The position numbers and the translations under genes are program-made. A stretch of 64,000 bases of DNA from a bacterium. Lineage in GTDB: Bacteria; J088; JAWLBW01. Under the pieces are notes generated by a model, which saw only the letters and a list, made by a program, of their open reading frames with translations, had not been told where the DNA came from and did not search any database. The stretch spans positions 7,374 through 71,373 of the forward strand of contig JAWLHK010000008.1 in NCBI GenBank assembly GCA_041690355.1, given 5' to 3'. Below, one piece after another: positions 1,115 through 64,000 of this stretch. Within the stretch, counting starts at the first letter, position 1; each line of letters opens with the position of its first letter.

Positions 1115-1469
1115 TGGAGATCATTGTACCGTGCCGAGGTCTTCGGACGCCGGACGTCGGACGCCGGTGAAGCAAGGTCCCAGCCCCCACCCCGTGAATC
1201 CTGTGCTGCGGGACTTCCCCCAAGGCGAAGTGAGCAGGCAACTCATGGTGTTCCCGATGATCACCGGCTATGGGGACGACCCCAGCGGGGTCGCATTTTT
1301 GAGACGCGCCGGGTCGCGCGGAATCGTTTCTCCCTGGGCTCGGAAGCGCCGGAACCGGCGCGCGCGAGCCGTCCTTCGCGTGCACGGCCAGACTCCGCCG
1401 GATATCCGCACCGGACGTCTGTCGGATACCCAACGAGGCGGCAGGGTGGCCTCGAATCGCGAACGGAAT

Positions 1470-6594: not shown

Positions 6595-6735
6595 GCGGCG
6601 GGCGGGCGTACAGGGGGGGGGATCGGACGTCGGACTTCGGACGTCGGACGTCGGTTCGGCAAGGGCCAGGCAAGGACGTCTCACGCGGAGACGCGGAGCC
6701 GCGGAGAGGAAGGACCGGCAAGGACCTTCTCGACC
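6595..6735. repeat. Intergenic composite repeat: (TCGGACG)n ... (CGCGGAG)n AGGAAGGACCGGCAAGGACC
   Basis: Direct reading; partial copy at 1135-1175 and a second copy at 7585-7650. Confidence 0.6.
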
Positions 6736-6992: not shown

Positions 6993-7514
6993 ATGACCCG
7001 TATCGCTTTGGTGCTTGCGACTATCGTTTCGCTGCTCACGGTTACGCCCGCGGCGGCGCAGAAGCAGGCTGTCGTCGAAGAAGGCAAGCTCGTGCGGGTG
7101 CGCATCACCCAGCCGGTGTCGAGCAACGGTTCGCGGCGAACGACCAAAGCCGTCGTCGATCGGGACGTGGTGCAGAACGGCAAGGTACTCATCCGCAAAG
7201 GCACGCCCGTGAAGCTCAAGGTCTACCGCGAGAAGAGCGAAGGTTGGGGCGCCGGCGGAGAGGTGAAGATCTATGCCCGATCTACCAAGGCGGTCGACGG
7301 CACCAAGATTCCGCTTCGCGGACGTATCAAGGAGATTGGCGCGCGCAACGACGAGATGCTCATCGTCGTGATTATCGGCGCGATTCTGATTCTGCCCCTG
7401 CTGATCCTCGGCTTCTTCATCGAGGGAGAGCCGGCGGTGGTTGAAGAAGACACGGTGCTCAAGGCGCGGGTCGACGAGGAGACGCCGATTCAACTGCCGG
7501 TTCCCCAAAGCTGA
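6993..7514 (+). CDS. Secreted hypothetical protein with N-terminal signal peptide and C-terminal TM helix
   Basis: Start MTRIALVLATIVSLLTVTPAAAQ (signal-like) after AAGGAGAAC SD; flanked on both sides by the same repeat family. Confidence 0.6.
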   Translation: MTRIALVLATIVSLLTVTPAAAQKQAVVEEGKLVRVRITQPVSSNGSRRTTKAVVDRDVVQNGKVLIRKGTPVKLKVYREKSEGWGAGGEVKIYARSTKAVDGTKIPLRGRIKEIGARNDEMLIVVIIGAILILPLLILGFFIEGEPAVVEEDTVLKARVDEETPIQLPVPQS

Positions 7515-7584
7515 TCGGTCTTCGGACGCCCCATCCGCTACGCTGCGGTGGGGGGGGCAATGCGCCGGTTTTCAATAAGGACGA

Positions 7585-7650
7585 AGTACCAGGAAAGGGC
7601 GTCCCACGCGGAGGCGCGGAGGCGCGGAGAGGAATGACCGGCAAGGACCC
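7585..7650. repeat. Second copy of (GCGCGGAG)n AGGAATGACCGGCAAGGACC element
   Basis: Same orientation as the copy at 6690-6735; brackets CDS 6993-7514. Confidence 0.6.
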
Positions 7651-8899: not shown

Positions 8900-9097
8900 T
8901 AGCAGGCCGCCCAGTTTTTGGTGGACGTGTCTTGTCTGAGCGATGCGCTCATCTGGACGACACGCTACCCCATTTCGGCGATATCCGCAACCGACCGCAG
9001 GGGGCCCATAGGACTAGAGATCGACGCAATTGGCCCGGGTTTGCCCTTGCTTCGTCCCCCACTCTCCCCCTCCCCCACTCCCCCCTTCCTGCGCGAG

Positions 9098-10606
9098 CTA
9101 CGTGGGGAAATTGCCCGCCAGGTGACGCGCGTTGCGCACGGCGAGCGCCATGATCGACTCCTGCGGATTCACGCCGATGGGGCTCGGGAAGAGGCTCGCG
9201 TCCGACACGTACAGATTCCGCAGTTCGTGCAGGCGCCCCCAGTTGTCGACCACCGAGCGATCGGGATAGGCGCCCATCTGCAGCGTGCCCATGATGTGCA
9301 CGGTGAGCACCTCGGTGTCGCGCTTCTTGATCCCCGGGTCGAAGATCTTCGGGATCTCGTCGGGCGAGCTGATTTCGGGTAAGTGGGCGAACGGCAGCAG
9401 AACCCGTTTCGCCCCCGCGGCGAAATTGAGCTGCGCCGCCAGCGCCGTGCCCCGCTTCAATAGATAGAAGTCGTAGTCGTTCAGGTTGTACTGGAGAATG
9501 GCGGAACCCTTGGGCCCGAGCTTCACGCGGCCGCGGCTCGTGTCTTCGATCAGGCAGCCGTTGATCAGCATGTGGTTGAACTGATCCATCAGATCGGCCA
9601 TGGCCCGGCCGTACTGCGGCAGCGTGAGGGCGATGAGCCCCGGCGGTACGCCCGCGGTGGCCAGCACGATGCCCTCTTCGATGAATTCGTGCACCTGGTG
9701 CGACTGGTGCACACCCTTCCACGAGCTGACGTCTTCGTCGAAGATCCCGATGGCCTTCGCGTTCGGATGCAATTGAAGATTCCGCCCGAGCTGTCCGCTG
9801 CGCGAGCGGATGCCGCTGCGCAGGAGCAGCGCGGGAGATTCTCCGGCCCCGCCCGAAACTACGACGACCTTCGCATGCACGCGCACGCGGTGCGACCGGT
9901 TGTTGAAGTCGTCGACCATGTAAGCCTCGACCCCTGTCGCCTTGTCCCCCTTCCACAGAATCTTCTCGACGCGGCAGTTCGCGATCAGCTTCGCGCCGTG
10001 CTTCCACGCGAGGGGAAGAAAGGAAAAGAGCGTGCCCTGCTTGGCGCCGGTCGGGCAGCCGATCACGCACAGGTTGGCGCCCGCGCAGTGCAGCTGGTTG
10101 CGCCGATCGGGGGTCACCTTCCACCCCAATTTGCGCGCTCCTTCGGCGTGCAGGTGGTTGTCGCGGCCCAGCGACTCGGGATCCTGTTCGCGCACGTTCG
10201 CCCGCTCTTCGACGTACTCGAAGTAGGGCTCCATCTCCTTCGGGCTGATGTGGGTCATGCCCGCTTCCATCGCCCACTTGTCGAGCACGCGCTCGGGGGT
10301 GCGCCAGCACATGCCGCCGTTGATGACCGTGCTGCCCCCCACGGCGCGCCCTTCGGCGTAGGCCACGCTCGGGGCGCCGAAGGCCAGCGTGCCCCCGGCG
10401 TTACGGTAGAGCTTCTTCAGCATCTCGGCGGTGCGGTGCGTGTAATCCTCGGTGCGCCAGTAGCCGCCTTCTTCGAGGATGAGCACGCTGTAGCCCGCCT
10501 GCGCCATCTCGGCCGCAAACGGGGCCCCGCCGGCGCCGCTGCCGATGACGACGACGTCGACGCTCTCCTCAAGATTCCGATTGACGTCGGCGGATGTCAT
10601 CACCAT
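9098..10606 (-). CDS. GMC family FAD-dependent oxidoreductase
   Basis: N-terminal GSGAGG FAD-binding motif; GMC C-terminal region; overlaps upstream small gene by about 30 nt. Confidence 0.85.
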   Translation of the reverse strand: MVMTSADVNRNLEESVDVVVIGSGAGGAPFAAEMAQAGYSVLILEEGGYWRTEDYTHRTAEMLKKLYRNAGGTLAFGAPSVAYAEGRAVGGSTVINGGMCWRTPERVLDKWAMEAGMTHISPKEMEPYFEYVEERANVREQDPESLGRDNHLHAEGARKLGWKVTPDRRNQLHCAGANLCVIGCPTGAKQGTLFSFLPLAWKHGAKLIANCRVEKILWKGDKATGVEAYMVDDFNNRSHRVRVHAKVVVVSGGAGESPALLLRSGIRSRSGQLGRNLQLHPNAKAIGIFDEDVSSWKGVHQSHQVHEFIEEGIVLATAGVPPGLIALTLPQYGRAMADLMDQFNHMLINGCLIEDTSRGRVKLGPKGSAILQYNLNDYDFYLLKRGTALAAQLNFAAGAKRVLLPFAHLPEISSPDEIPKIFDPGIKKRDTEVLTVHIMGTLQMGAYPDRSVVDNWGRLHELRNLYVSDASLFPSPIGVNPQESIMALAVRNARHLAGNFPT

Positions 10607-11090
10607 AGGTCGCGAGCCTCCGGGCTTGAATGGTTTGCACATGCGAGACGGGGTCGTAATGGATGTGCCGCATGACTTCGGGGTGCTGGTAGAAGCCCAT
10701 GAGCACGACCCCCTTGAGCCCCTTCATCATGTCGCGCTTCCACCAGAACCGCGATTCGGTCCAGCCGGCCATGTAGCGCTCCTGCCGTTCCCGCGAAAGC
10801 ATCGTGAACGGCAGCGGCAGGCCGCTCCACAGGATGGCGGCGAACTGGAAGATCCAGACGCCGATGGGGAAGCCGAGCTTGAGCAGCGGCGGAAGATAGC
10901 GCACGAAGTTGTCGACGAAGTTGACGAGATCGTCGGTGCACTCCACGCGCAGCTTCTCGTTGCGGGGGAGCAGCACGTCGGTCATGGCGCGCAGAATGTA
11001 CCGGGTCCCGCGGCCGAGGTAGCGCTTCCCGGGGGGATGGAAATCCGCGGGGAGCGGCTCGGTGGCCGCCGGGGCGACAGAGTCGATCAT
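10569..11090 (-). CDS. Hypothetical protein, operon partner of the GMC oxidoreductase
   Basis: 173-aa ORF translationally coupled between the GntR gene and the GMC oxidoreductase; no recognisable motif. Confidence 0.5.
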   Translation of the reverse strand: MIDSVAPAATEPLPADFHPPGKRYLGRGTRYILRAMTDVLLPRNEKLRVECTDDLVNFVDNFVRYLPPLLKLGFPIGVWIFQFAAILWSGLPLPFTMLSRERQERYMAGWTESRFWWKRDMMKGLKGVVLMGFYQHPEVMRHIHYDPVSHVQTIQARRLATYGDDIRRRQSES

Positions 11091-18354: not shown

Positions 18355-18425
18355 GCGCAATTGACAATTTACGATTGACGATTGACGATTTGCCGGACAG
18401 TACGACCTATCGGGCGGGGCCCGGC
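18355..18425. repeat. Heptamer tandem repeat block (TTGACAA TTTACGA TTGACGA TTGACGA)
   Basis: Direct reading; same unit as at 19470-19505, 35510-35540 and, inverted, at 39195-39225. Confidence 0.6.
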
Positions 18426-18534: not shown

Positions 18535-19458
18535 ATGCCGACAACCGTCGCCCCCGCATCCGCTCCTGGCCCCGCCCTCGACCCGCATCGCCTGGTGCGC
18601 CGCCGTGTCGTGCTCGCCATGGTCACGCTCTACGTCCTGTGGAGTTCCACCTACCTCGCCATCCGCATCGCGGTCGAGAGCCTGCCGCCATTTCTCATGG
18701 CCGGCGCCCGGTTCGCCGTGGCCGGAAGCGTGCTCTACGCCGCGCTCCACCTGCGCGGTGTTGCGGCGCCCTCCCTACGGCAGTGGCGGAATGCGGGACT
18801 CATCGGCCTCTTTCTGGTGCTCGGGGGAAACGGGCTCGTGACCCTGGCCGAAACCACCGTTCACTCGGGGACGGCCGCCATTCTCGTTTCGACCTCGAGC
18901 CTGTGGACGACGATGCTCGGCGGCTTCATCGGGCTCCCGCGCCGGCGCCTGGAGTGGGCCGGCATCGCCGTCGGCCTTTCGGGGGTCGTGCTCCTGCACA
19001 TGCAGGATCTCGACCATCTCGGCAGCCCCTTCGGCATCGGCCTGGTCCTCACGGCCGCCGTCCTCTGGGCAAGCGGGTCCATTCTCTCGCTCCGGCTCGA
19101 CCTTCCGGACGCCGTCATGTCGACGGCCGTCCAGATGCTTGTGGCCGGCGGCGCCATGCTCGTCCTTGGCGCGCTGCTCGGCGAGCGGATTCCGCATGCC
19201 CCCACGCCCGATTCCCTCTGGGCCTTCGGCTATCTCATCTTTGTCGCCATGTCGGGCTTCACCGCCTACAACTACGCCATCCGCCATGCGCGCCCGGCCG
19301 TGGCCACGAGCTACGTCTATGTGAATCCGGTGCTCGCCGTCCTGCTCGGCGCCCTCGTCCTCGGCGAACCGATTACCCCTACGACGGTAGCCGCCATGGC
19401 GATCATCGTGAGCGGCGTCATCCTTGTCGTGCTCCCGGGTGCGCTCCGCAGGAAGTGA
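18535..19458 (+). CDS. EamA/DMT superfamily transporter
   Basis: Ten predicted TM segments and two EamA-like halves. Confidence 0.8.
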   Translation: MPTTVAPASAPGPALDPHRLVRRRVVLAMVTLYVLWSSTYLAIRIAVESLPPFLMAGARFAVAGSVLYAALHLRGVAAPSLRQWRNAGLIGLFLVLGGNGLVTLAETTVHSGTAAILVSTSSLWTTMLGGFIGLPRRRLEWAGIAVGLSGVVLLHMQDLDHLGSPFGIGLVLTAAVLWASGSILSLRLDLPDAVMSTAVQMLVAGGAMLVLGALLGERIPHAPTPDSLWAFGYLIFVAMSGFTAYNYAIRHARPAVATSYVYVNPVLAVLLGALVLGEPITPTTVAAMAIIVSGVILVVLPGALRRK

Positions 19459-19665
19459 CGAGTGACGAGCAATTGACGATTTACGATTGACGATTGACAA
19501 TTTACGATTGCGGTCGGGGAAGCACCTGACATTGCATCGGCCCTCGTTTCTTTGGCGCTTGGTGCTTGGCGCTCGGCGATTTTCCCCCCGCCCTCGCTTC
19601 TCAGGAATCAGGAATCCGGGCTTGATTGGCGCTTAGCGCTCAGCGCTTCGCGCCTGGTCCCCTCT
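19459..19665. repeat. Composite intergenic element: (GTGACGA)n, (TTKACGA)n, GGCGCTTGG blocks and (CAGGAAT)n
   Basis: Direct reading; homologous full elements at 35495-35700 and partial copies at the sites listed in the findings. Confidence 0.65.
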
Positions 19666-25003: not shown

Positions 25004-26533
25004 TCATTCTCCCCTCCGATCGAGGATGCCGTCGACGAGAAAATCGGTCTGCTCCTGCGTGCGGGCTGCCGCCGGATCGTGGAAGAGAATCGAACCGTAG
25101 GGATAATCGAGCAGCGCGAACAGAGAGCCGCCCTTGCCAAGCGTGCCGATGCGCAGCGGATAGAACGGCAGGTCCTCATGATCACGTGTCAGATCGAGCG
25201 CCTCGATCTTGCCCGTGCGCAGGTTGAGCGCCACCAGATCGGCGAAGTTCTCGAGGCGCAGAAACAGATGGGCGCCGTCGGGGGTCATGACCGCTTCGGC
25301 GATGCGGTCGGGGAGCTCTACCGGGCTGAAGGCTTCGGCATAGTTGACGTACGTGAACGAGTCGCCCGCCCCGTCCTGCCCGCGGTGGATGGCCACCGAG
25401 CTCTGTCCGTCGGGGGCGTGCAGGATCTCGTCGGCGCGCAGCTGGAAGGGAATGACGACGACGTGGCCGGTGCGCACGTTGAGGCGGTAAATCGACGGCG
25501 CCCCTTTGGCCTGGTGCATGAGCACCCTGCGGCCGTCGGGCGTCGCGACGAGGGTATCGGGCTTGCTCAGGATGTCGGGCATGCGCACGGTCACGGCGCG
25601 GTTCAGGTTGTCGACGTTGAACACCGAGATCGTCTTGTTTCCGTTGAGCACATAAAGCAGCCGCGTCTCGCCGGTGTCGCTGCGCGGAAAAATCGTTTCC
25701 GCGTCAGCCGCGAGCGGGGGGCCGAGCGCCAGCGCGACCGGCTGCTCAACGTCCTGGGCGAGAAAGTTCACCGGCGGCAGATCGAGCGCGGTGTCGGTGG
25801 CGACCGAGAGAATCTCGTCGCGCCCCTGGATGAGCACGAAGACCCGTCCTGCCGTCTGCACGGCCCCGGCCGGCCGTTCGCTCAGGTTGACCTGCACGCT
25901 GAGCGGCCGCGTCTGTTTCCAGTCTTCGCCCGGATCGGCTTCGAAAAGCCGCTCCAGCTTCACCTGCGCCATCTGGCCGGGGGAGAAGAAAAGGAGCCGC
26001 GTCTCGCCGTCCCTCTCGTAAAACGCAATCACGTCGGGGGGCGAGCCCACGGTGAACTCGGCCGCCTCGCCGGTGGCACGGTCGAGCACCGTCATCTGAT
26101 TCGGATCGACGATACCGGGCGCGTCGCCTCCCGGCGTGGCGCGCAGCAGGAGCCAGCGGCCGTCGGGCGACTCGTCGAGGCGATCGCAATACCGGCAGAC
26201 GGCAAAGGTCGCGGCCGTGGCCCCGTCGGCAGAAAGCAGCGTGAGGCGCCCGCGGGCCGGATCGATCCACGCGGTTCCGCCGCCGCCGGCCAGGGCACGG
26301 GCAATCGTGGGCTTGCCGCTCGGATAGAACGGAACGCGCCCGCCCGGGTGCAGCACGAATCCCTGCTTCCACGCGGGATCGTAGACGGCCACCCGTCCGC
26401 CGGCGCCCACCGCCTGCAGCCGGTCTGAGAAGGTTGCTGAATCCCGAGTGTCGCAGCCTGCGAGAAGCAGGGTCGCCCCAAGCAGCCCGGTTCCGAGAAT
26501 CTTTCGCCATGCGCTCGCATGTACCATGGTCAC
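25004..26533 (-). CDS. Lipoprotein with beta-propeller-like repeats
   Basis: Lipobox LLLAGC; repeated hydrophobic/Asp-Gly blade-like segments. Confidence 0.55.
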   Translation of the reverse strand: MTMVHASAWRKILGTGLLGATLLLAGCDTRDSATFSDRLQAVGAGGRVAVYDPAWKQGFVLHPGGRVPFYPSGKPTIARALAGGGGTAWIDPARGRLTLLSADGATAATFAVCRYCDRLDESPDGRWLLLRATPGGDAPGIVDPNQMTVLDRATGEAAEFTVGSPPDVIAFYERDGETRLLFFSPGQMAQVKLERLFEADPGEDWKQTRPLSVQVNLSERPAGAVQTAGRVFVLIQGRDEILSVATDTALDLPPVNFLAQDVEQPVALALGPPLAADAETIFPRSDTGETRLLYVLNGNKTISVFNVDNLNRAVTVRMPDILSKPDTLVATPDGRRVLMHQAKGAPSIYRLNVRTGHVVVIPFQLRADEILHAPDGQSSVAIHRGQDGAGDSFTYVNYAEAFSPVELPDRIAEAVMTPDGAHLFLRLENFADLVALNLRTGKIEALDLTRDHEDLPFYPLRIGTLGKGGSLFALLDYPYGSILFHDPAAARTQEQTDFLVDGILDRRGE

Positions 26534-28056
26534 TCCGCTTCGGTACCCAGCAGGTACCCGGTAAGAACTTCGCGATCGGTTTCGACGCTGGCGGCGCTGG
26601 CCGTCACGTCGAGAAAAAGAATGCGCCCCGCATCGTGCTCCTGCGTGACGAAGGCGTGGCCCCCCGCCAGCGGCATGGCGCTCAGGAACAGCGGCTTCGC
26701 GTCGAGGGCATGGGCCGCGTGCAGGCCGTTGCGCAGCGAGAGGGTCACGAGGTAATCGGGTTTCTCTGTGGTGAGGAATGCAAAGTCGCCGTCGGGGCTG
26801 AAGGCGATGCCGTGGATGTCCCCCGCAAGTTCGATGGCCGGCGCATCGCCCGTGGCCAGGTCGAGCATCGACACGACAGGACCGCCCAACGCGCTGCTTC
26901 CGGCGCGGTGCACGATGAGCGCGCTGCGGCTGTCGGGAGCCGGGATCGCGGCCGCCACGGGGGCGACGAGCGGCACGTCGGTGATACTGTCGTCACCCGG
27001 ATCAAAGATTGCCACGGCCGACAGGTTCGCCGCCGCCGTGAAGAGAATGCCGCGCGAGCCGTCGGGGGTGAACTCGGTCTGGGCGTAGGGGTGCGGGCTG
27101 GTGACGGCCGCACTGAAGGTCACCTCCGTCGCGCCGACGGCGAAGCGGCGCAGCCGGTAGCGTGAAGGATTGCGATCCGAGACGTAGAGCACGTCGGCGT
27201 CGGCGCTCAGATCCATGTCGGTGGCCACGCTGTCGCCGGCCACTGAAGACGCAATGCCGTCGGCGAGGCGCACGGCCCGCACGCCGTTCCGGTCCGCTTC
27301 GCGGAAGAACGCCCAGCCGCCGTCGTTGGTGAGCAGCGCCTCTTCGAGCGTCCCGAAGGTCGACGTCGTGAAGGGGATCGGGCTCGCCGTCGCCGTCGCC
27401 AGATTGAGCAGCGTGCCCCGCGCGTCGGTAGCCGCCAGCGCCAGCGGCGTTCCATCGTTCCCCGTCGCGAGCACGATGGCGCGCGGCGCGAAGCCGAGGG
27501 CGCGCGAGACGACGCGCCCGGCCGCGATGTCGATGATCGAGACGACGTCGAGCGAGCGCGCCCCGCCGTCGACCGCGTCGCCGTCGAGCGCGGCCTTGTC
27601 GACGTAGCCGACCCCGAACCCCGACGGGTGAAAGACGATGTCGTTGACGTCGGCCGGGATGCGCACGTTCCGCAGATCTCCAGAGGCGGCGTCGAGGAGG
27701 CTCACCGTGTGGTCGCCGCGGTTGAGCACGAGCACATGCTGCGGCGTCGTGCGGATGATGCCCGGCTCGAGCCCGGTGCGGATCAGGCTGATTTCATGCG
27801 GCCGCGCCACCGAGATGCGCGATATGGAGTCGATGCTCGGATTGGCGACGTACAGGTACTCTTCGGTCACTCCGGGCGCGACGCCGAGAAAGGCGCGTGT
27901 GACGACCTCGGTTTCGGGCGGGAGCGTCGTATCCGTGACGTCGTCGCCGATGCCGCCCGGACGGCCGTCTCCCTCCACGGCGCTGTCGTAGGCGCCGGAG
28001 CAGGCGACCGAACCGAGCACGAACAGCAGTGCGCCGTGGAGCAGGGTCTTATTCAT
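26530..28056 (-). CDS. YVTN-family beta-propeller lipoprotein (paralog 1)
   Basis: Lipobox VACSG; YVANPSIDSISRI-type YVTN repeat; about 60% identical to the next gene. Confidence 0.6.
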   Translation of the reverse strand: MNKTLLHGALLFVLGSVACSGAYDSAVEGDGRPGGIGDDVTDTTLPPETEVVTRAFLGVAPGVTEEYLYVANPSIDSISRISVARPHEISLIRTGLEPGIIRTTPQHVLVLNRGDHTVSLLDAASGDLRNVRIPADVNDIVFHPSGFGVGYVDKAALDGDAVDGGARSLDVVSIIDIAAGRVVSRALGFAPRAIVLATGNDGTPLALAATDARGTLLNLATATASPIPFTTSTFGTLEEALLTNDGGWAFFREADRNGVRAVRLADGIASSVAGDSVATDMDLSADADVLYVSDRNPSRYRLRRFAVGATEVTFSAAVTSPHPYAQTEFTPDGSRGILFTAAANLSAVAIFDPGDDSITDVPLVAPVAAAIPAPDSRSALIVHRAGSSALGGPVVSMLDLATGDAPAIELAGDIHGIAFSPDGDFAFLTTEKPDYLVTLSLRNGLHAAHALDAKPLFLSAMPLAGGHAFVTQEHDAGRILFLDVTASAASVETDREVLTGYLLGTEAE

Positions 28057-29563
28057 CGTGCGTCCCCAGGAGATAGCCGGTCAGGATTTCGGTCTCGTGC
28101 TCGACGCTCGCCAGGGTGTCGGTCACGTCGAGAAACAGGATGCGGCCGGCGTCGTGTTCCTGCGTGACGAAGGCGTGACCCCCTGCGAGGGGCAGCACGC
28201 CGAGAAACAGCGGCGCCTCGCCGAGCGCTTCCGCTCGGTACAGGCCGTTGCGCAACGAGAGCGTGAGCAGGTAGTCGGGCGATTTCGTCGTGACGAAGGC
28301 GAAGGCGCCGTCGGGGCTGAAGGCGAGCCCGTGCAGATCGCCCTCGAGCTCGATGGCGGGCGCCTCGCCGGTGTCGAGGTTCAGCAGCGTGAGCGCCGCG
28401 CGGGAGAAGAAGCCGCCGGCGCCGTCTCCCTCGTGCGCGAGAATGGCCGTGCCGCTGTCGGGGGCCATCCACAGGGCGCTGACGGGGCGCACGACGGGAG
28501 CTTCGAGTACGCCGCCGTCTGCGGTCGCGAGGATGCCGACTCCGGCGACCGACCCGCCCCCGGCGAACAGCAGCGCGCGGGTGCCGTCGGGCGTGAGCTC
28601 CACCTGCGTATACGGAGTCGCGACCGTCACCGTGGTCACCGGGGTAATCGCGGCGGCCCCGACGGCATAACGGTGCAGGCGGAAGTCGTTGTCGGCCTCG
28701 GCCACGTAAAGCGAAGCGCCGTCGGGGCCAAGTTCCGCATCGCTGACGGTAATCCCGGCGGCCACCGTCGCCGCCTCGCCATTCGCCAGCCGGACGGCGC
28801 GCAACCCCTTGTTCCCCGCGAGGCGGAAAAGCGCCCAGGCGCCGTCGGGCGTGAGCAGGGCTTCTTCGATCTCCGGAAGCGAAGCCGACGTGAAGGGGAC
28901 CGGCGTCGCGGCAGCCGTGCGCAGGTCGAGAAGGGCTGCCCGGTTCTCGCCGGCAACAAGCGCCGTCCAGGTACCGGCGAACCGGATGGCCGCGGGCGCG
29001 AAGCCGAGGGCGCGCGAGACGGCCGTTCGACCCGGAATGTCGAGGGCCGTGATTACGTCGAGGGCGCGCGTGCCGCCGTCGAGGTCGGAGTCGGTCACGC
29101 GTTCGCGGTTCACGAAGCCGAGTGCATAGTTGCCGTGGTGGGCGACGTCGTTGATGTCCTTGGGCAGGCGCAGCGTGCGCACGCTGTGGTCGGCGCGGTG
29201 CACGAGGCTCACCGAATGTTCCCCCTCGTTCAGCACGAGCAGGTCGGTCGGCGTCGCGTGAATGAGTCCCGGCTCGAGCCCCGTGCGGATCAGATCGATG
29301 GTGTGCGGCCGGGCAATGCCGATGCGCGAGATGGAATCGAGGCTCGGATTGGCCACGTAGAGATATTCCTCGGTCACGGCCGGCGCGACGCCGAGAAAGT
29401 GCAGGCTCACGATCTCCGACTCCCGGGGGAGCGGCCCCCCCTGGCCTGCGGGGTCGGGGTCGACCAGGTCGTCGAGCCACTCGCGCGAGGCCGCGTCGCC
29501 GCAGGCAACCATGGCGACCAGCGAGGCCATGAGGATCGGGAGCAGACGGGGCAGTCGCGTCAT
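28049..29563 (-). CDS. YVTN-family beta-propeller lipoprotein (paralog 2)
   Basis: Start MTRLPRLLPILMASLVAMVACGD; shares the C-terminus AGGHAFVTQEHDAGRILFLDVT with paralog 1. Confidence 0.6.
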   Translation of the reverse strand: MTRLPRLLPILMASLVAMVACGDAASREWLDDLVDPDPAGQGGPLPRESEIVSLHFLGVAPAVTEEYLYVANPSLDSISRIGIARPHTIDLIRTGLEPGLIHATPTDLLVLNEGEHSVSLVHRADHSVRTLRLPKDINDVAHHGNYALGFVNRERVTDSDLDGGTRALDVITALDIPGRTAVSRALGFAPAAIRFAGTWTALVAGENRAALLDLRTAAATPVPFTSASLPEIEEALLTPDGAWALFRLAGNKGLRAVRLANGEAATVAAGITVSDAELGPDGASLYVAEADNDFRLHRYAVGAAAITPVTTVTVATPYTQVELTPDGTRALLFAGGGSVAGVGILATADGGVLEAPVVRPVSALWMAPDSGTAILAHEGDGAGGFFSRAALTLLNLDTGEAPAIELEGDLHGLAFSPDGAFAFVTTKSPDYLLTLSLRNGLYRAEALGEAPLFLGVLPLAGGHAFVTQEHDAGRILFLDVTDTLASVEHETEILTGYLLGTHDE

Positions 29564-29809
29564 ACGGAATTCCTCGAGAAAGCGGAATGGATCCGGTTCG
29601 CCCGGTTCGCGGAGCAAGAAGCATACCATAGTCCATCGCTGAGCCTCACGCTTGGGGTAAGGGCGGATCCAGGCCTGGAATCCGGAGGGTGGAATGCGGA
29701 ATGGCCGGTCCCTGTACGACATTGGTGTCACAGAGGCAGGCGGAAGAAGGGCTTGCGCATTTAACGCAATGCGTCAATAATATGGGCAGGTCCCGGTTGG
29801 AGGATATGC

Positions 29810-32150: not shown

Positions 32151-32228
32151 TTACTGCGGATCGACGATCTGGGTGACCAGCGTGATCGCGCGGACTTCCT
32201 TCTTGACGAACAGCGGCTTGTTGTACAT
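32151..32228 (-). CDS. Small ORF 1 of a tandem triplet: 25 aa, MYNKPLFVKKEVRAITLVTQIVDPQ
   Basis: ATG preceded by AAAGGGA SD; not in ORF track (<60 aa); paralogous to the next two ORFs with synonymous third-position changes. Confidence 0.6.
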   Translation of the reverse strand: MYNKPLFVKKEVRAITLVTQIVDPQ

Positions 32229-32324
32229 GGGATATCCCTTTGTCATGATGGTTGAACGGCCGGGGAGCTGCCCTGTAAGGCCGGTCCGCCGCGAGCGACG
32301 GACCGGCACCCTATCGTTTTCCCG

Positions 32325-32411
32325 TTACTGCGGATCGACGATCTGGTCGACCGGGGTCACCAGCGTGATCTTGCGAACGAGCTTCTTGGCGATGGCGGGT
32401 TTGCTGTACAT
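32325..32411 (-). CDS. Small ORF 2: 28 aa, MYSKPAIAKKLVRKITLVTPVDQIVDPQ
   Basis: GAGGAGTG SD; upstream hairpin; 3-codon insertion relative to copies 1 and 3. Confidence 0.6.
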   Translation of the reverse strand: MYSKPAIAKKLVRKITLVTPVDQIVDPQ

Positions 32412-32475
32412 GGCTCACTCCTCGGTAAGCATAGGTTACGAATGGTTTCGCCGTCCCGAAGGACGGCGAACCGGG

Positions 32476-32553
32476 TTACTGCGGATCGACGATCTGGGTG
32501 ACGAGCGTGATCTCGCGAACGACCTTCTTGGCGAACATGGGCTTGTTGTACAT
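32476..32553 (-). CDS. Small ORF 3: 25 aa, MYNKPMFAKKVVREITLVTQIVDPQ
   Basis: GGAGGA SD; same conserved termini as the other two copies. Confidence 0.6.
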   Translation of the reverse strand: MYNKPMFAKKVVREITLVTQIVDPQ

Positions 32554-32741
32554 GTGATCCTCCAACGAGTGAGGTTACGATGAGTGCGAACGCCGGTTTA
32601 CCCTGCGCTCACACTTCCACCGTAGCATTGCTCAACCGGAGGCAAGTCTCCGGGCGGTGACGAAGACCCCGGGGGGGTTGACAACCTGGAGCACGGCCCG
32701 CAAGGAAAACGCGGGGCGGGGGGAGCCGTCCGGAGCGGACT

Positions 32742-35494: not shown

Positions 35495-35700
35495 AAGTGA
35501 CGAGTGACGAGAATTTACGATTTACGATTGACGATTTGAGGAAAGTGACGAGTTACAAGTGACGAGTGACGAGTTTTCCGGCAAGGACCTGGGCGTCCTT
35601 GTTCTTGCCGGTCAGCGCTTGGCGCTCGGCGCTCAGCGCTCGGTCCTGCCTCTCAGGAATCAAGAATCAGGAATCCGGAATTCATTGTATGCGTTTGCGC
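35495..35700. repeat. Full composite intergenic element: (GTGACGA)n (TTTACGA)n (GTKACGA)n, hairpin core TTTCCGGCAAGG...CCTTG..CTTGCCGG, GCGCTYGGCGCT blocks, (CAGGAAT)n
   Basis: Direct reading; homologous to 19459-19665, 36598-36700, 39813-39915 and 55735-55830. Confidence 0.65.
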
Positions 35701-36142: not shown

Positions 36143-36507
36143 AGACTACGCTTCAAAATCCGTCAAAGGAGCTTCGAAGTCGGGCGCCACGGTGAATTGC
36201 CCCTTGGCAGATCCTCTCGTCCGCTTCCCAGGTTCCCGAGCAGGGACGATGCGGGCTACGGGAGTCGTTCCGTGACAAATAACCACATCCTCGCCGGCCA
36301 GGGCTCTCTCAATGATCTCCAATAATCGAAGACTGGGCGTCGCGAAGTTCGTAGGTTGCCATCTGCAGACCGATCATACGGCTTTATGGACAGTCTTCTT
36401 GCGCAACCAACGGCTCAACCCAGCCCGTGCGTCTACGAGCTGGACGCCGGAGCCCGGCAGGGGCTATAATCATACGTTTGTACTGCCGTTTGACGCAGCC
36501 GAGTTTG

Positions 36508-36597
36508 GGAGAGGTGGCCGAGCGGCTGAAGGCACGCGACTGGAAATCGCGTAAACCTTAACGGGTTTCGAGGGTTCGAATCCCTCCCTCTCCGCCA
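36508..36597 (+). tRNA. tRNA-Ser (anticodon GGA), class II, CCA encoded
   Basis: GGAGAGGTGGCCGAGCGGCTGAAGGC...anticodon loop CUGGAAA...T-arm GAGGGTTCGAATCCCTC...CCTCTCCGCCA; TATAAT box about 40 nt upstream. Confidence 0.85.
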
Positions 36598-36700
36598 ATT
36601 CAAGTTACGAGTGACGAGTTACGAGTGACGAGTATTCGGCAAGGGCGTGGGTATCCTGGGCCCTTGTCGGCTCGGCGCTCAGTGCTTGGCGCTTTTCGCT
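36598..36700. repeat. Composite element copy (GTTACGA/GTGACGA heptamers plus a GGCAAGGGCGTGGGTATCCTGGGCCCTTGTC hairpin plus GCGCTCAGTGCTTGGCGCT)
   Basis: Direct reading immediately 3' of tRNA-Ser(GGA). Confidence 0.6.
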
Positions 36701-39100: not shown

Positions 39101-39235
39101 ATTGACGATTGACAATTGACGATTGACGATTTTTTCGTACACTCGTCAATCTGTCTTCGTCCCTTTTTTTTGTACTCCGTCCTTGCCGAAAATTGTTAAT
39201 CGTAAATCGTAAATCGTAAATTTGTCCGACCCGAT
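39095..39235. repeat. Heptamer repeats (ATTGACG ATTGACA ATTGACG ATTGACG) and, about 80 nt later, the inverted form (CGTAAAT)x3
   Basis: Direct reading between ybaB and recR. Confidence 0.6.
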
Positions 39236-39812
39236 CCAGAATCTCATTCATGAGCTGACGCGGTTGCCGTCGGTGGGCGAGAAGACCGCCACGCGGCTCG
39301 CGTTTCACCTGCTCAAGACGCCGACCGAGACGGCCCTCGCGCTTTCGCGCGCCATCGCCGAGGTCAAGGAGAAGGTGCGCCTGTGCAACCGCTGCTTCCA
39401 CCTGACGAGCGGCGAGGAGTGCAACCTCTGCATCGATCCGCGGCGCGAGGGAGATCGGATCTGCGTCGTCGAAGAGCCGCTCGATCTGCTCGCCATCGAG
39501 AAGTCGCGCATCTACCGCGGCCGCTACCACGTGCTGCACGGCGTGCTCAGTCCGATTGACGGGGTCGGCCCCGATCAGCTGCGCATCGAGCCGCTGCTGG
39601 CCCGCATTCCCGCCGAGCAGGTGCGCGAGGTCATCCTCGCGACCAATCCGTCGGTGGAAGGGGAGGCGACGGCCATCTATCTGGCCAAGCTGCTCAAGCC
39701 GATGGGCGTGCGCATCAGCCGTATCGCCCACGGCATTCCCATGGGCGGCGAACTCGAATACACCGACGAGCTGACCATCGGCCGCGCCCTCACCGACCGG
39801 CGTGAAATGTGA
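39222..39812 (+). CDS. recR: Recombination protein RecR
   Basis: HhH (LPSVGEKTATRLAFHLL), C4 zinc finger (CNRCFHLTSGEECNLC), Toprim. Confidence 0.9.
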   Translation: MSDPIQNLIHELTRLPSVGEKTATRLAFHLLKTPTETALALSRAIAEVKEKVRLCNRCFHLTSGEECNLCIDPRREGDRICVVEEPLDLLAIEKSRIYRGRYHVLHGVLSPIDGVGPDQLRIEPLLARIPAEQVREVILATNPSVEGEATAIYLAKLLKPMGVRISRIAHGIPMGGELEYTDELTIGRALTDRREM

Positions 39813-39915
39813 CGAGTTACGAGTGACGAGTGACGAGTTTCCGGCAAGGGCGTGGGCATCCTAGTCCTTGCCGGTCAGCGCTCAGTGCTTAGCGCTTGGC
39901 GCTTGGCCCTAGAAG
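39813..39915. repeat. Composite element copy ((GTGACGA/GTTACGA)n plus TTTCCGGCAAGGGCGTGGGCATCCTAGTCCTTGCCGG hairpin plus GCGCTCAGTGCTTAGCGCTTGGCGCTTGGC)
   Basis: Direct reading 3' of recR. Confidence 0.65.
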
Positions 39916-41292: not shown

Positions 41293-42405
41293 ATGACCCG
41301 GATGGATATGCGTTTCATCGACCGCCCCCAGGATGTCTCCGAGACCGTCCGGGACCTTGCGGCGGCCCCCTGGCTCGCCCTCGACACGGAGTTCATGCGG
41401 GGCAACACCTACTCGGCCCGGCTCTGTCTGGTGCAGGTCGCCTCGGCCGACCTCATCGCCGTCTTCGATGCGTGCGCGCTCGGCGAGCAGATGAGCCCGC
41501 TGACCGATCTGCTGTTTTCCGACCGGACGCGCAAGGTTCTGCATTCCGCCTACCAGGATCTGGAGGTGTTCTATGACCTGCGCGGATCCGTTCCCGCGCC
41601 CGTCTACGACACGCAGATCGGCGCCCTGCTGCTCGGCTTCGAGCCGCAGATGGGCTACGGCGCCATGGTCGAGGCGGTGACCGGCACGACGCTCCCCAAG
41701 GCGCACACCCGCGAAGACTGGGCGCGCCGCCCGCTCGATCCCGCCGCCGTCGCCTACGCGGCCGACGACGTGAAGTATCTGCGGCAGGTTTACGAGGCGC
41801 AGCAGGAAGAGCTCGACCGCCTGGGCCGCGGCGGCTGGCTGGCCGACGACTTCGCGCGCATGGGTGAACCGCGCCTCTACGCCAATCCGCCCGAAGAGGC
41901 GTGGAAGCGCATCCGTGGCGCCGAGCGCCTTGTTCCCGTGCAGCTGAGCGTGCTGCGCGCGTTGGCGGCCTGGCGTGAACGCAAGGCGCGCGAATGGGAC
42001 CGCCCGCGCAAGTGGATCCTGCAGGACGGTCCGCTGCTCGAAATGTCGCGCCGCCTCCCGAAGACGCTCGCTGAGCTCGGCGAGATCCGCGATCTCGAAC
42101 GGCGGCAGATCGAGAAGCGCGGCGCCGAGTGGATCCGGCTCATCGAGGCCGCCGCCGCAGAAGCCGATGACGAGCGCCCGCAGCTCGAAGCGCACCAGCG
42201 CATGACGCGCGCCGAGGCGAAGAAGGTCGACGAGCTGGCGAAGGTCGTCGACGCCGTCGCGCGCCCCGAGCGCGTCCATCCGACCCTGGTGGCGACGAAG
42301 AAGGAGCTCGCGCGCCTGGTTCTCCAGGAGCACGACATTCCCCTTCTGCGCGGCTGGCGCCGCGACCTGGTCGGCGAAAAACTCCTCGAGCATCTCCGGC
42401 CCTAG
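41293..42405 (+). CDS. rnd: Ribonuclease D
   Basis: DEDDy exonuclease motifs (LALDTEF, HSAYQDLEV, YAADDVKYL) plus HRDC-like C-terminus. Confidence 0.8.
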   Translation: MTRMDMRFIDRPQDVSETVRDLAAAPWLALDTEFMRGNTYSARLCLVQVASADLIAVFDACALGEQMSPLTDLLFSDRTRKVLHSAYQDLEVFYDLRGSVPAPVYDTQIGALLLGFEPQMGYGAMVEAVTGTTLPKAHTREDWARRPLDPAAVAYAADDVKYLRQVYEAQQEELDRLGRGGWLADDFARMGEPRLYANPPEEAWKRIRGAERLVPVQLSVLRALAAWRERKAREWDRPRKWILQDGPLLEMSRRLPKTLAELGEIRDLERRQIEKRGAEWIRLIEAAAAEADDERPQLEAHQRMTRAEAKKVDELAKVVDAVARPERVHPTLVATKKELARLVLQEHDIPLLRGWRRDLVGEKLLEHLRP

Positions 42406-42530
42406 CGCGCCGGAGATGCATTCCTGATACCTGATTCTTGATTCCTGATTCGGCGAGGGCCGGGCAATTCCCCGTGCGTGCGTACCCTCGTCCTTGTTGG
42501 CTCAGGAATCAGGAATCAGGAATGGGAGGA
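42405..42530. repeat. (ATTCCTG)n inverted arm ... (CAGGAAT)x3: an inverted-repeat pair of the CAGGAAT heptamer block
   Basis: Direct reading; GCATTCCTGATACCTGATTCTTGATTCCTGATTC ... CTCAGGAATCAGGAATCAGGAAT. Confidence 0.6.
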
Positions 42531-42539
42531 AGCGCCGCT

Positions 42540-43206
42540 CTACTTCCGCGTGCGCTGTTCCTCGTCTTCGCGTCGCGGCGCTTCCTCCTCGTGGGTGTGC
42601 TCGCGCGGGAAGTCGGGTTCGAACTCGTGCAGAAAGCCGTCAATCTCGTTCGAGACCGGCTGGCTCTCGGCGGCGAGCTGAAACTCGATGTTCGGCCGGT
42701 CGATCAGCCTGCGATCGATGATCGGAATGCGCCGCCGCTCCCCGAAGAGCTCGAGCACCTCGGGGGTCAACCGCGGGCGTTCGAGGGCCAGCCGCCGGTT
42801 CTCGCCCGGGTGGCTCACGAACAGACGGTACAACCCCTCCTCCTTCAGCTTCATGCGCGCCATGACCTGCGGCGGCACGTCGCGCAGCCGGAACTCGAAG
42901 GCGAGAAACGTCTCGTCCTCTTCGGGGATGATGGAATAGGGTCCGTCGGCGATGCAGCGGCCGCCGTCTTCGCCCACGTCCGAAATGGCGTCTTCGAGCC
43001 GGTTGTAGACCCGATCGACCACCCCCCAGACGTGATGGTGGCGGATGGACGAGGGGTCGGGCAGGCGCACGTCCTGCAGGAGCACGCGGCGCACCGGACT
43101 CTCCGTACGCGGGTCGAAGATCAGCTCGACGTACTCGGTCGGATTCCTGAACTTGACGATAGGAAAGTAGTAGACGTAGAGGTGCCCGAAGTCGACGACA
43201 TCCATA
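42540..43206 (-). CDS. Hypothetical protein
   Basis: Start MDVVDFGHLYVYYFPIVKF; acidic C-terminal tail; no motif recognised. Confidence 0.45.
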
Positions 43207-54861: not shown

Positions 54862-55329
54862 ATGTCATCCAATGAACTGGACGCCCTGCTGCGCCGGATT
54901 CGCGAAGAGGCGGTTTCGCGCGGCCTGCTCGTTTTCAAAGCGTCGCCGCTCTGGGACGACGATCTTCTGACCACCGTCGAATGGCGCGGCGACGAATCTG
55001 ACGCCGGCTGGCGTGAGTTTCTCGACGTGGCGGGGGCCCGCAAGGTTCCCATGCTGCTCGAGATCGCCCACTCGTTCGACCCCTCGGCGTTCGAGCCGAC
55101 GCCCCGCGATTTCCGCGCCCGGCTCGACCGCGAAATGCAGGAAGAATTCGAAGAACGCGATCAGATGCTCGCCGCTGCGAGCCAATGGGCCGGGCAGACC
55201 GGGCGCATCGAGATCGGGTGGATTGAAAACGGCGTCTTCTATCAGTGGCGCCGCGAGACCGACTGGTACCCCCGGGTCTGGGAGCTGGTCTCGAGTGGAC
55301 CGTTCGGTTTCGACGACAGCGAAGAATAG
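54862..55329 (+). CDS. Hypothetical acidic protein
   Basis: 155-aa ORF; no motif recognised. Confidence 0.4.
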   Translation: MSSNELDALLRRIREEAVSRGLLVFKASPLWDDDLLTTVEWRGDESDAGWREFLDVAGARKVPMLLEIAHSFDPSAFEPTPRDFRARLDREMQEEFEERDQMLAAASQWAGQTGRIEIGWIENGVFYQWRRETDWYPRVWELVSSGPFGFDDSEE

Positions 55330-55427
55330 GGGGGAAGAAGCGGCCTCTGGCCTTCCCCGCCCATCGCGCCCCGGGAGATCCGCCGGGCGATGGGGCGAGT
55401 CAAACGCAGGGATCAGCGAGGAATTCC

Positions 55428-55700
55428 ATGGCGAAGATTCAGATTGAGCGGGCCCATACGATGCAGATCAGCGACGTCAAGGGCAAGGTCGACGGCATGA
55501 TGGACAAGATGAAGTCCATGGGCGTCGACGCCACCTGGCAGGGTGATGACCTGCAGCTCAACGGCCGCGGCGTGAAGGGGACGGTCAAGGTCGGCGCCGA
55601 TCGGGTCGTCGTGAACCTCGACCTCAGCATGCCGGCTTCGCTCATGAAGGGGAAGATTGAAGAGAAGATCCGCCAGGGTCTCGACAAGAATCTCGCGTGA
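55428..55700 (+). CDS. Small hypothetical protein (90 aa), possibly polyhydroxyalkanoate-system-family-like
   Basis: GAGGA SD; family assignment is a recollection only. Confidence 0.4.
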   Translation: MAKIQIERAHTMQISDVKGKVDGMMDKMKSMGVDATWQGDDLQLNGRGVKGTVKVGADRVVVNLDLSMPASLMKGKIEEKIRQGLDKNLA

Positions 55701-55734: not shown

Positions 55735-55830
55735 CCTTCTCCTTGCGAAGGAGAAGGGTTTCTTTCCCGGTCCTTGCTTCCTGATCCGGCCCTTGCTTCT
55801 CAGGAATCAAGAATCAGGAATCAGGAATCC
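55735..55830. repeat. Composite element copy (hairpin CCGGTCCTTGCTTCC...GGCCCTTGCTTCT plus CAGGAAT/CAAGAAT x4)
   Basis: Direct reading. Confidence 0.6.
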
Positions 55831-56391
55831 TTATTTCGCTGCTTTGAGTTCCTCGAGCTTGGCCTTGAACTGCTCGTTGGCCGGCTCGATGCCCACGGCG
55901 AGCTGCAGCTGCAGCTTCGCCCCCGCGACGTTCTTGTTCTTGAGCGCGTCCATGGCCGCCATCCAGTAGCGCTTGCCGGGGCCGTTGCCGCCGTCGTACG
56001 TCGTGCCCCCCTGCTGCTGCCGCTTGATCTCCTCTTCGATGGAGAAGCGCACCTTGGCCGGGTCCTCGGCGATCTGCCGATCGTAGGCTTCACGCCACTG
56101 CGGCGAGCGCAGGATATTGTAGGCCTCGGCAATCCGCTTGTAGATCTGATGGACGGCGTTGCGGAAGTTTTCGTGGGGAAAACGGAAGTAGCGATCCGGA
56201 TGGTAGTCGCGCGACAGCTTGTAGAAAGCCTTCTTGACCTCGCCCTGATCTGCCTTGGGCGAGATCTCGAGCAGCTGGTAGTAATTCAGGCGCGGCAGCG
56301 CCTTCCACACCAGCTTGAGCTTGTTGACGATCTCGGGGTCGAGTGCAGGCGCCTGCTGCAATCCGGTATCCGGCGCAGTATCGGTGCTCAT
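55831..56391 (-). CDS. J-domain (DnaJ-like) co-chaperone, partner of the upstream Hsp70
   Basis: YYQLLEISPKADQGEVKKAFYKLSRDYHPDR with HPD motif; ATGA overlap with the Hsp70 gene. Confidence 0.75.
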   Translation of the reverse strand: MSTDTAPDTGLQQAPALDPEIVNKLKLVWKALPRLNYYQLLEISPKADQGEVKKAFYKLSRDYHPDRYFRFPHENFRNAVHQIYKRIAEAYNILRSPQWREAYDRQIAEDPAKVRFSIEEEIKRQQQGGTTYDGGNGPGKRYWMAAMDALKNKNVAGAKLQLQLAVGIEPANEQFKAKLEELKAAK

Positions 56392-57956: not shown

Positions 57957-58037
57957 GCGGATGCCTCCTGAAATGGCCCGAACATTCTACCAACTTGCGG
58001 GCGGCAAATTCAAAGCCGCCCGCTCGCAGCCGACCCG

Positions 58038-60400: not shown

Positions 60401-60421
60401 GAAAACCGTTTCTCCCCCGGT

Positions 60422-61591: not shown

Positions 61592-61657
61592 AGAGGGGTG
61601 ACACCAAGCCCAACATAGTATATTTGGCGGTGCTATGAGTGTCAATGCGCCGGTTCG

Positions 61658-63900: not shown

Positions 63901-63934
63901 ACTATGGGGGGCAATGCGCCGGACCCTTCCTTCG

Positions 63935-64000
63935 TCAGGGCAGGCTCTGGACGTCGGCCGGGAGCAGCTCCGCGCCCGCGGCTTTCCGCTCAGGAATCAA
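63935..64000. repeat. Start of another CAGGAAT-type element (truncated by window end)
   Basis: GGCTTTCCGCTCAGGAATCAA at the window edge. Confidence 0.4.

Follow-up and report, generated by a model that had tools for sequence, protein, structure and literature searches.

What are the short tandem repeats that recur between the genes of this stretch of bacterial DNA, and why do so many of them have a period of seven? The stretch analysed here (the window) comprises 64,000 nucleotides of contig JAWLHK010000008.1, with a G+C content of about 66%; it derives from an uncultured lineage and constitutes the whole of our view of the genome. Repeat arrays occupy 12 of its intergenic spacers. They are intergenic heptanucleotide arrays of the known class of long simple-sequence repeats, joined to a small hairpin resembling repetitive extragenic palindromes (REPs); the particular units and the hairpin are not among the families described, although the class itself is. 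Regarding origin and role, the reading we favor, with a probability of roughly 55%, is that heptamer arrays born by replication slippage have spread as blocks and, we infer, act as structured spacers at gene ends.

The heptamer signal is strong. A scan of periods 4–12, with 100 dinucleotide-preserving shuffles as the null, identified 11 strong tandem runs of period 7 in the window and between zero and two of any other period, while the shuffled windows contained a mean of 0.02 strong period-7 runs and a maximum of one. With a looser cut-off there are 15 period-7 runs, all 15 of which lie within the approximately 10% of the window that is non-coding. Tandem Repeats Finder reports 19 period-7 arrays (at 1144, 6623, 18360, 19454, 19472, 19552, 19601, 19629, 35496, 35615, 35653, 36603, 39101, 39190, 39809, 39877, 42420, 42502 and 55800), together with 8-mer arrays at 6683 and 7607, and the sequence CGGCAAGG is present 18 times against 4.5 expected. 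The heptamer arrays are far beyond chance. A first-pass annotation had described a family of mosaic intergenic repeats; every site it listed carries the modules assigned to it, and the period-7 excess confirms the array family. The copy placed at 63935–64000 does contain CAGGAAT but is weak, with about 1.5 units cut by the window end.

Five heptamers and one octamer recur at the 12 spacers, in arrays of 2–5 units:

Unit A, GTKACGA, at four spacers in the window.
Unit B, TTKACGA, at four spacers in the window.
Unit C, GCGCTYR, giving AGCGCT palindromes spaced 7 bp, at four spacers in the window.
Unit D, CAGGAAT, at five spacers in the window.
Unit E, TCGGACG, giving GACGTC palindromes spaced 7 bp, at two spacers in the window.
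Unit F, the octamer CGCGGAGN.

The arrangement of these modules is ordered. Reading the plus strand from left to right, the order A, B, hairpin, C, D is common to the four spacers that start at 19454, 35496, 36603 and 39809. A block of about 105 nt, (GTKACGA)4 followed by a CCGGCAAGG-N16-CCTTGCCGG hairpin and (GCGCTYR)4, occurs three times, with 85% identity over the alignment columns, those of the hairpin loop included, and the order of the G and T unit variants is the same in two of the three. Shorter blocks behave similarly. The B blocks at 18357–18391 and 19469–19503 are 94% identical, as are the D blocks at 35647–35681 and 55794–55828, which share a TCAAGAA variant and keep their unit-variant order, and the 66-nt F blocks at 6661–6726 and 7584–7649 are 88% identical and in the same orientation. 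Among independent copies in the window each family has one strand orientation, inverted partners excepted. Because blocks with their order of unit variants match at separate sites, whole arrays have been copied between loci as blocks of 35–105 nt, beyond any local expansion, and with its fixed-order modules and shared blocks the proposed modular, dispersed repeat family is genuine. Its hairpin core is also real, but the form originally quoted is one base off the copy at 39838–39874 (...ATCCTAGTCC...), and there are only three full hairpins in the window (35578–35611, 36637–36670 and 39841–39874), each with a stem of 9–10 bp and a conserved loop; there is none at 19459–19665, the site at which the family had been flagged. 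As a dispersed imperfect palindrome of about 20–40 nt, the three-copy CCGGCAAGG-N16-CCTTGCCGG element has a trait of REPs and of the related REPINs.

The individual arrays and composites are as follows:

1144–1167, plus strand: (CGGACGY)3.4, module E, 28 nt upstream of the start of a minus-strand aminopeptidase-like gene and 302 nt downstream of the stop of a minus-strand aldehyde dehydrogenase gene.
6623–6654, plus strand: (TCGGACG)4.6, module E, in a divergent spacer, with GACGTC palindromes every 7 bp.
6661–6726, plus strand: F block copy 1, (CGCGGAGN)3 octamers then AGAGGAAGGACCGGCAAGGACC, a 66-nt direct repeat.
7584–7649, plus strand: F block copy 2, which with copy 1 flanks the small gene 6993–7514.
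18357–18391, plus strand: B block, GCA-(ATTGACR/ATTTACG)4-ATTT, beginning 5 nt past the stop of a fabR-like gene.
19454–19654, plus strand: composite without a hairpin, between convergent genes; (GTGACGA)2 containing the TGA stop of a yedA-like gene (19456–19458), B block 19469–19510 of (ATTKACG)5, a spacer, (TTGGYGC)3 at 19552–19578, (TCAGGAA)2 at 19601–19616, and (GCGCTYR)3 at 19626–19654, which ends 10 nt from a minus-strand gene stop.
35496–35681, plus strand: the fullest composite, in the divergent spacer between pdxH (minus strand) and a UPF0102/YraN gene (plus strand); (GTGACGA)2, (ATTKACG)3, (GTKACRA)4, hairpin 35578–35611, (GCGCTYR)4–5 and (TCAGGAA)4 at 35647–35681.
36603–36700, plus strand: A4-hairpin-C composite of (GTKACGA)4, hairpin 36637–36670 and a GCGCTYR block, beginning 5 nt past tRNA-Ser(GGA) and upstream of the signal recognition particle RNA gene.
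39101–39131, plus strand: (ATTGACR)4, beginning 0 nt past the ybaB stop; its last unit pairs with TCGTCAATC at 39142–39150 in a 9-bp stem.
39190–39221, minus strand: inverted partner array, read on the plus strand as (AAATCGT)4.6, ending at the recR start.
39809–39907, plus strand: A4-hairpin-C4 composite between convergent genes; (GTKACGA)4 containing the recR TGA stop (39810–39812), hairpin 39841–39874, and (GCGCTYR)4, which ends 1 nt from the stop of a minus-strand exonuclease gene.
42420–42523, no strand assigned: a long palindrome in a convergent spacer, made of (ATTCCTG)4.6, a GC-rich stem at the center and (TCAGGAA)3, so that either mRNA would carry AUUCCUG units 14–16 nt past its own stop.
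55794–55829, plus strand: D block, CTTC-(TCAGGAA/TCAAGAA)4, ending 1 nt from the stop of a minus-strand DnaJ-like gene.
63990–64000, plus strand: start of a (TCAGGAA) array, cut by the window end.

The two same-orientation F blocks do bracket gene 6993–7514, as had been noted, and the description of its product as secreted agrees with what looks like a signal-peptide-like N-terminus if the start is at 6993. Elsewhere in the window, a C-rich 8-mer array, (TCCCCCAC)3.8, is located at 9055–9086, just downstream of the stop of the minus-strand gene 9098–10642; on the mRNA of that gene it gives G-runs (GGGGGAGTGGGGGAGGGGGAG...) that might form a G-quadruplex, as with the G-rich repeats of Xanthomonas.

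The locations of the arrays with respect to genes, mapped by codon-position G+C together with NCBIfam and Pfam hits, show an association with gene ends. Ten array boundaries lie 0–16 nt from a stop codon or tRNA end, in agreement with the initial observation that many sites follow stop codons or tRNA-Ser, and in two cases the array itself supplies the TGA. On the plus strand the distances are 5 nt from the fabR-like stop, 5 nt from tRNA-Ser(GGA), 0 nt from the ybaB stop and 14 nt from the rnd stop, with arrays overlapping the TGA stops of the yedA-like gene and recR; on the minus-strand side, the stops of four genes are separated from array ends by 10, 1, 16 and 1 nt. Five of the 12 spacers lie between convergent genes, four between tandem and two between divergent genes, and the window end truncates the remaining one. 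Inverted array pairs are present at 39101/39190 and 42420/42502. An apparently separate dispersed gene-end motif, the 17-mer GGGGGGCAATGCGCCGG, occurs exactly twice (7552–7568 and 63906–63922, against 0.09 expected allowing up to two mismatches), 38 nt and 6 nt past plus-strand gene stops.

Several of these spacers are predicted to fold strongly. The spacer at 42403–42542 folds as one long hairpin on each strand (z of −4.4 and −5.0); for the A-hairpin-C composites, which enclose a core stem of 9–10 bp, z is −3.2 to −3.8; and the C (GCGCTYR) arrays are predicted to self-fold. It had been suggested that the composites are terminators, and for canonical intrinsic terminators this is rejected: no U-tract follows the hairpins, terminator-like sites are not enriched, and the full composite at 35495–35700 lies between divergent genes. 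The only terminator-like site overlapping a composite (35577–35593) falls inside the left half of hairpin 35578–35611 and does not span it. Classical hairpin-plus-T-run ends do exist in the window, for example after 55245–55700 and after tRNA-Ser(CGA). No Rfam family reaches threshold for the composites, and the one sub-threshold match, to the Xanthomonas small RNA sX4 (RF02223) at 36498–36652, scores 49.4 bits against a gathering threshold of 70, with the aligned part being tRNA-Ser. TTGACG units acting as −35 boxes are rejected, there being a single weak promoter-like match (39116–39143), and a TTGACG-type unit is also present in Bacteroidota, whose promoter consensus differs. A role as backup stops in all three frames is rejected too, as TTTACGA has no sense-strand stop yet is equally close to stops (10 of 19 within 20 nt).

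Arrays of the same kind are present well beyond this lineage. A scan with one genome per species found (KTKACGA)3 at no fewer than 119 loci, and among the matches listed the hosts include Acidobacteriota, Verrucomicrobiota, Bacteroidota, Chloroflexota, Planctomycetota, Cyanobacteria, Gammaproteobacteria and other groups. Cultured carriers among these matches are Alcanivorax sp. DG881, Dysgonomonas termitidis CCUG 66188, Mariniflexile soesokkakense KCTC 32427 and a Chitinophaga pinensis genome. The approximately 119 listed loci contain 285 period-7 runs, of many different units, against 0–28 for other periods, an excess that applies to those genomes since having a heptamer array was the basis for selecting the loci; in 671 kb of unrelated metagenome DNA, used as a control, there are five period-7 runs, not above other periods. 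The KTKACGA arrays begin a median of 14–19 nt past a same-strand stop, with the 3′ side far from the next gene, and the 5′ side is nearer to its neighboring gene in 51 of 70 spacers, against 19 for the other side (p = 1.7e-4). Distances on the start-codon side in other phyla may be shortened by longest-reading-frame calling and stop-rich reverse strands, and are not relied on here. Inverted partner arrays are downstream rather than upstream by 16:4 at genome loci and 6:0 at viral loci, and an adjacent array of a different unit accompanies about 16% of genome-locus arrays and about 10% of viral ones; one or other of these companions is found with 13–16% of KTKACGA arrays, and the mosaic and inverted architecture of the window is therefore typical of the class.

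In viral contigs (IMG/VR), (KTKACGA)3 is present in at least 120 stretches, against 31 and 61 loci for two permuted heptamers, and is thus at least 2–4 times commoner than these controls. Nonetheless, that permuted control heptamers form arrays at tens of sites weakens the idea of KTKACGA as a uniquely conserved motif. Distant (KTKACGA)3 arrays on a single contig are mostly co-oriented in the viral and proviral contigs L244–L363 (10 pairs against 2). Orientation set by the replication strand is rejected, as array strand is unrelated to local GC skew at 116 genome and 119 viral loci. A scan of metagenomes for the stem alone (CCGGCAAGG-N10–24-CCTTGCCGG) picked up 120 palindromes that are due to chance, with no heptamers in their vicinity, and is useful only as a control.

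The nearest relatives of the window are metagenomic, with 67–79% protein identity, while named hits (Polyangiaceae, Binatia and others) reach only about 50%. Their contigs have fewer arrays, and of other units. The spacer between ybaB and recR illustrates this well: (ATTGACR)4...(AATCGTA)4 in the window corresponds to (KTTGAGG)4...(CCTCAAM)3 in relative L120 (9893–10003; fold z = −3.6), to inverted 8-mers, GGTAGTTY, in L458 (8680–8840), to a classical hairpin and T-run terminator, GCGCCCCGTAACGGGGCGCTTTT, in L123 (6946–7031), and to only 18 nt in L457. Unit turnover is therefore fast while the type of structure recurs.

How do these arrays relate to repeats already described? With the intergenic heptanucleotide repeats they share the period-7 excess, confinement to non-coding DNA, reuse of units (within the window), proximity to stops, and inverted pairs. 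The first-pass annotation had named correspondence to a known annotated element family as grounds for refuting its claim; at the level of class, such a correspondence is largely what is found. The heptanucleotide repeats of Calothrix PCC 7601, known as STRR (Mazel et al. 1990), are similar in that several tandem heptanucleotide units of no known function are dispersed over many intergenic loci of one genome, but the units and phylum differ from those of this uncultured lineage of about 66% G+C. We know of no CCGGCAAGG hairpin described in association with STRR. The REP and BIME elements of enterobacteria, and REPINs, are short dispersed intergenic imperfect palindromes enriched at 3′ ends and between convergent genes, and in mRNA 3′ ends REP and BIME elements stabilize RNA or attenuate read-through. 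REPs are not made of tandem heptamers, however, and the hairpins of REPINs come in pairs and are linked to a REP-associated tyrosine transposase (RAYT) gene; the hairpins here are single, only three copies can be counted, and no transposase was found among the window open reading frames (ORFs) scanned. The 7-bp periodicity, pointed out early on as unusual, is so for REP elements proper but not for bacterial intergenic repeats.

Indeed, heptanucleotides have been reported to be the most abundant class of long simple-sequence repeats in most bacterial genomes, and a polymerase footprint has been proposed to explain the 7-nt period (Mrazek 2007, as relayed in PMC4679880 and PMC4692102); three tandem heptanucleotide repeats of Calothrix are likewise cited in PMC4692102. 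A close parallel is with the GGGAATC repeats of Xanthomonas, with 186 arrays for which transcription and positional conservation are reported (Rehm et al. 2015, PMC4692102), and with the GGGGAYT repeats of Nostoc. These resemble the present family: the heptamer arrays, most commonly of four units, are about 90% intergenic, lie nearer to the 5′ than the 3′ neighboring gene, form convergent inverted pairs, and have one unit common to hundreds of loci, and in Xanthomonas they are likewise close to stop codons (PMC4692102). Read as AGGAATC, the CAGGAAT unit is one base off the Xanthomonas GGGAATC. The units of the window lack the G-tract richness of those repeats, so that G-quadruplexes are not expected, and differ in that several unrelated units are arranged in fixed order around a hairpin core, with evident copying of whole blocks. 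The TAACTGA repeats of Beggiatoaceae, Cyanobacteria and Bacteroidetes (2–6 copies per set at about 170 intergenic sites; MacGregor 2015, PMC4679880) resemble (KTKACGA)3 in that one heptamer is present in distant phyla, and post-transcriptional roles and RNA-binding partners have been proposed, though not shown, for them. They are a single unit located mostly just upstream of starts, in contrast to the five heptamers and an octamer found here, most of whose arrays closely follow stops. In a 2022 preprint dealing with recF and recO of Nostoc, the binding partner and role of such repeats are treated as unknown. Finally, the heptads bound by omega (ParB) of pSM19035 are made up of contiguous 7-bp units, some direct and some inverted; four or more are needed for function, and each unit binds one ribbon-helix-helix dimer (PMC9499535). 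Four or more contiguous 7-bp units are present in window arrays too, but the units differ from WATCACW and no ribbon-helix-helix gene was found among the neighboring ORFs scanned; moreover, omega sites overlap plasmid partition operon promoters beside the gene for the binding protein, and the arrays here are chromosomal, of several units, and mainly at gene ends.

We therefore propose that the arrays are gene-end spacers produced by slippage and spread by copying, because this accommodates the period-7 excess, the reuse of units, block copying, the gene-end boundaries and the strong predicted folding, because relatives have inverted arrays or a hairpin and T-run at the ybaB-recR spacer, and because the class behaves alike at the listed loci of many phyla and matches published descriptions. 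Replication slippage in a 7-nt register would create arrays and alter their length; blocks may spread by ectopic recombination, gene conversion or a mobilizing enzyme encoded elsewhere in the genome, and would persist where they are harmless or useful, mainly at gene ends. The arrays would be transcribed into 3′ or inter-cistronic RNA, in which stable stem-loops could form from the hairpin core, from the inverted pairs and from the GCGCTYR and TCGGACG arrays, which are self-complementary. These stem-loops may act in REP-like fashion as 3′-end barriers, attenuators of read-through or insulators between neighboring genes. The exact heptamer sequence probably matters less than its repetitive, structure-forming nature.

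There are several points that weigh against this proposal. Two composites, the fullest (35496–35681) among them, sit in divergent, promoter-bearing spacers, and the elements are therefore not purely 3′-end features. The three hairpins all lack a downstream T-run, and the region between 35 and 43 kb has no more canonical terminator-like sites than expected (5 against 5.5). Slippage alone accounts neither for the recurrence of the same few units genome-wide nor for the favored period of 7, and a non-exhaustive scan of the window ORFs turned up no candidate transposase or recombinase. Transcription, termination or a stabilizing effect are deductions from 64 kb of sequence.

Other explanations share parts of this evidence. 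If the arrays were simply neutral by-products of slippage biased to 7 nt, tolerated only outside genes, their proximity to stops would reflect expansion up to coding sequence. The prevalence of heptanucleotides among long simple-sequence repeats in most genomes and the polymerase-footprint idea (as relayed in PMC4679880 and PMC4692102) are consistent with this, as are arrays abutting any functional boundary (a tRNA end included), the rapid turnover of units between relatives, and the existence of arrays of arbitrary control units. Yet neutrality does not predict that a few units are reused and copied as blocks between loci, that conserved hairpins accompany arrays, or that there is polarity (51 against 19 for the closer 5′ side; inverted partners downstream 16:4 and 6:0), and the related Xanthomonas repeats are reported as transcribed and positionally conserved (PMC4692102); we consider it a possible but rather unlikely explanation. 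The copied blocks, with their unit-variant order and short flanks intact, the hairpin conserved loop and all in three copies, and the single strand orientation of each family in the window (inverted partners aside) could instead point to non-autonomous mobile elements of the REP/REPIN or miniature inverted-repeat (MITE) type, with arrays as part of the unit and a transposase encoded elsewhere, such as an IS200/IS605-kind RAYT recognizing the hairpin. This seems unlikely, as the blocks have neither terminal inverted repeats nor target-site duplications, the hairpins are single, unlike the paired REPINs, most modules (B, D and E) have no hairpin, no transposase is present among the window ORFs scanned, and KTKACGA orientation elsewhere is independent of local GC skew. 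The MITE-like label given at the outset in particular is not supported, since the A-hairpin-C copies end in two different direct-repeat arrays and the flanks of the three copies contain no shared duplication.

That the arrays are cooperative protein-binding sites regulating or insulating adjacent genes is an idea with a good precedent in the omega/ParB heptads, whether the ligand is DNA (recognized by ribbon-helix-helix proteins, as with omega/ParB heptads and the 8-bp MetJ boxes) or RNA (recognized, at about 7 nt each, by cold-shock-domain, S1-domain or CsrA-type proteins). The 7-bp register, typical four units and mixture of direct and inverted repeats match omega sites (PMC9499535); the reverse complement of GTGACGA contains the TCAC core of WATCACW, GCGCTYR and TCGGACG give palindromic hexamers (AGCGCT and GACGTC) every 7 bp, and CAGGAAT contains a GGA motif. 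The reuse of the same few units, the excess of (KTKACGA)3 over both permuted controls in viral contigs, and the binding partner postulated by the authors of the Nostoc and Beggiatoaceae studies fit as well. But several factors would be required for the 5–6 unrelated units of this one genome, the same spacer has different units in close relatives, permuted heptamers also form arrays at tens of sites, no consensus fits a known operator, and no ribbon-helix-helix or other candidate gene lies beside any array among the ORFs scanned, so that we regard this role as doubtful. It is very improbable that the composites encode small regulatory RNAs or processed tRNA trailers. Although one composite directly follows tRNA-Ser in the region of the sub-threshold sX4 match (49 bits), and predicted folding is stable, that match is carried by the tRNA-Ser part of the model, no promoter-terminator pair frames the composites, module content differs between copies, and no Rfam family is found at threshold.

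The window has other repeated or conserved features. Between 44284 and 52159 there is a stretch of lower G+C (about 61%), covered by repeat families D1, D2, D6 and D15 and made up of three tandem paralogous units, each with a protein of about 600 amino acids without a Pfam hit (610, 616 and 588 aa) and a smaller protein, two of the latter (257 and 262 aa) having a CarboxypepD_reg domain. Two adjacent minus-strand paralogues of about 510–560 aa at 26530–29731 share segments of 106–300 nt at 74–75% identity (families D3, D5 and D13), and at 32151–32558 an 83-nt segment is present three times in tandem with 63–89% identity, apparently as three small minus-strand ORFs, one of them called at 53 codons. 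The gene cluster at 55831–63900 encodes a truncated Hsp70-like protein (522 aa) beside a DnaJ-domain protein, a histidine kinase, an FHA-domain protein, a Ser/Thr kinase and gshA-gshB, and its order is conserved in relative L455 (3–7795) at about 74% identity.

Taken alone, the window leaves existing knowledge unchanged. It does add a dense, multi-unit example from an uncultured lineage with clear copying of blocks between loci, and it extends the gene-end polarity known from Xanthomonas to a different unit in many phyla. In annotation, spacers of this type are best labeled heptanucleotide repeat arrays, and not novel RNAs or mobile elements. Arrays of this class have been on record in bacteria for many years; papers from 2015 to 2022 still establish no function for them, name no proven binding partner and offer no tested explanation of the 7-nt period. 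A more speculative reading, which we think has little chance of being correct, is that heptamer arrays are more than slippage debris and constitute pan-bacterial, polar gene-end elements that are made, spread or read by a process working in a 7-nt register; it is raised because the 5′ ends of (KTKACGA)n arrays lie 0–20 nt past stops in many phyla, with or without a stop in the unit, because inverted partners are almost always convergent, and because whole blocks move between loci. If true, that process could involve a dedicated enzyme, or a factor acting at the termination of transcription or translation.

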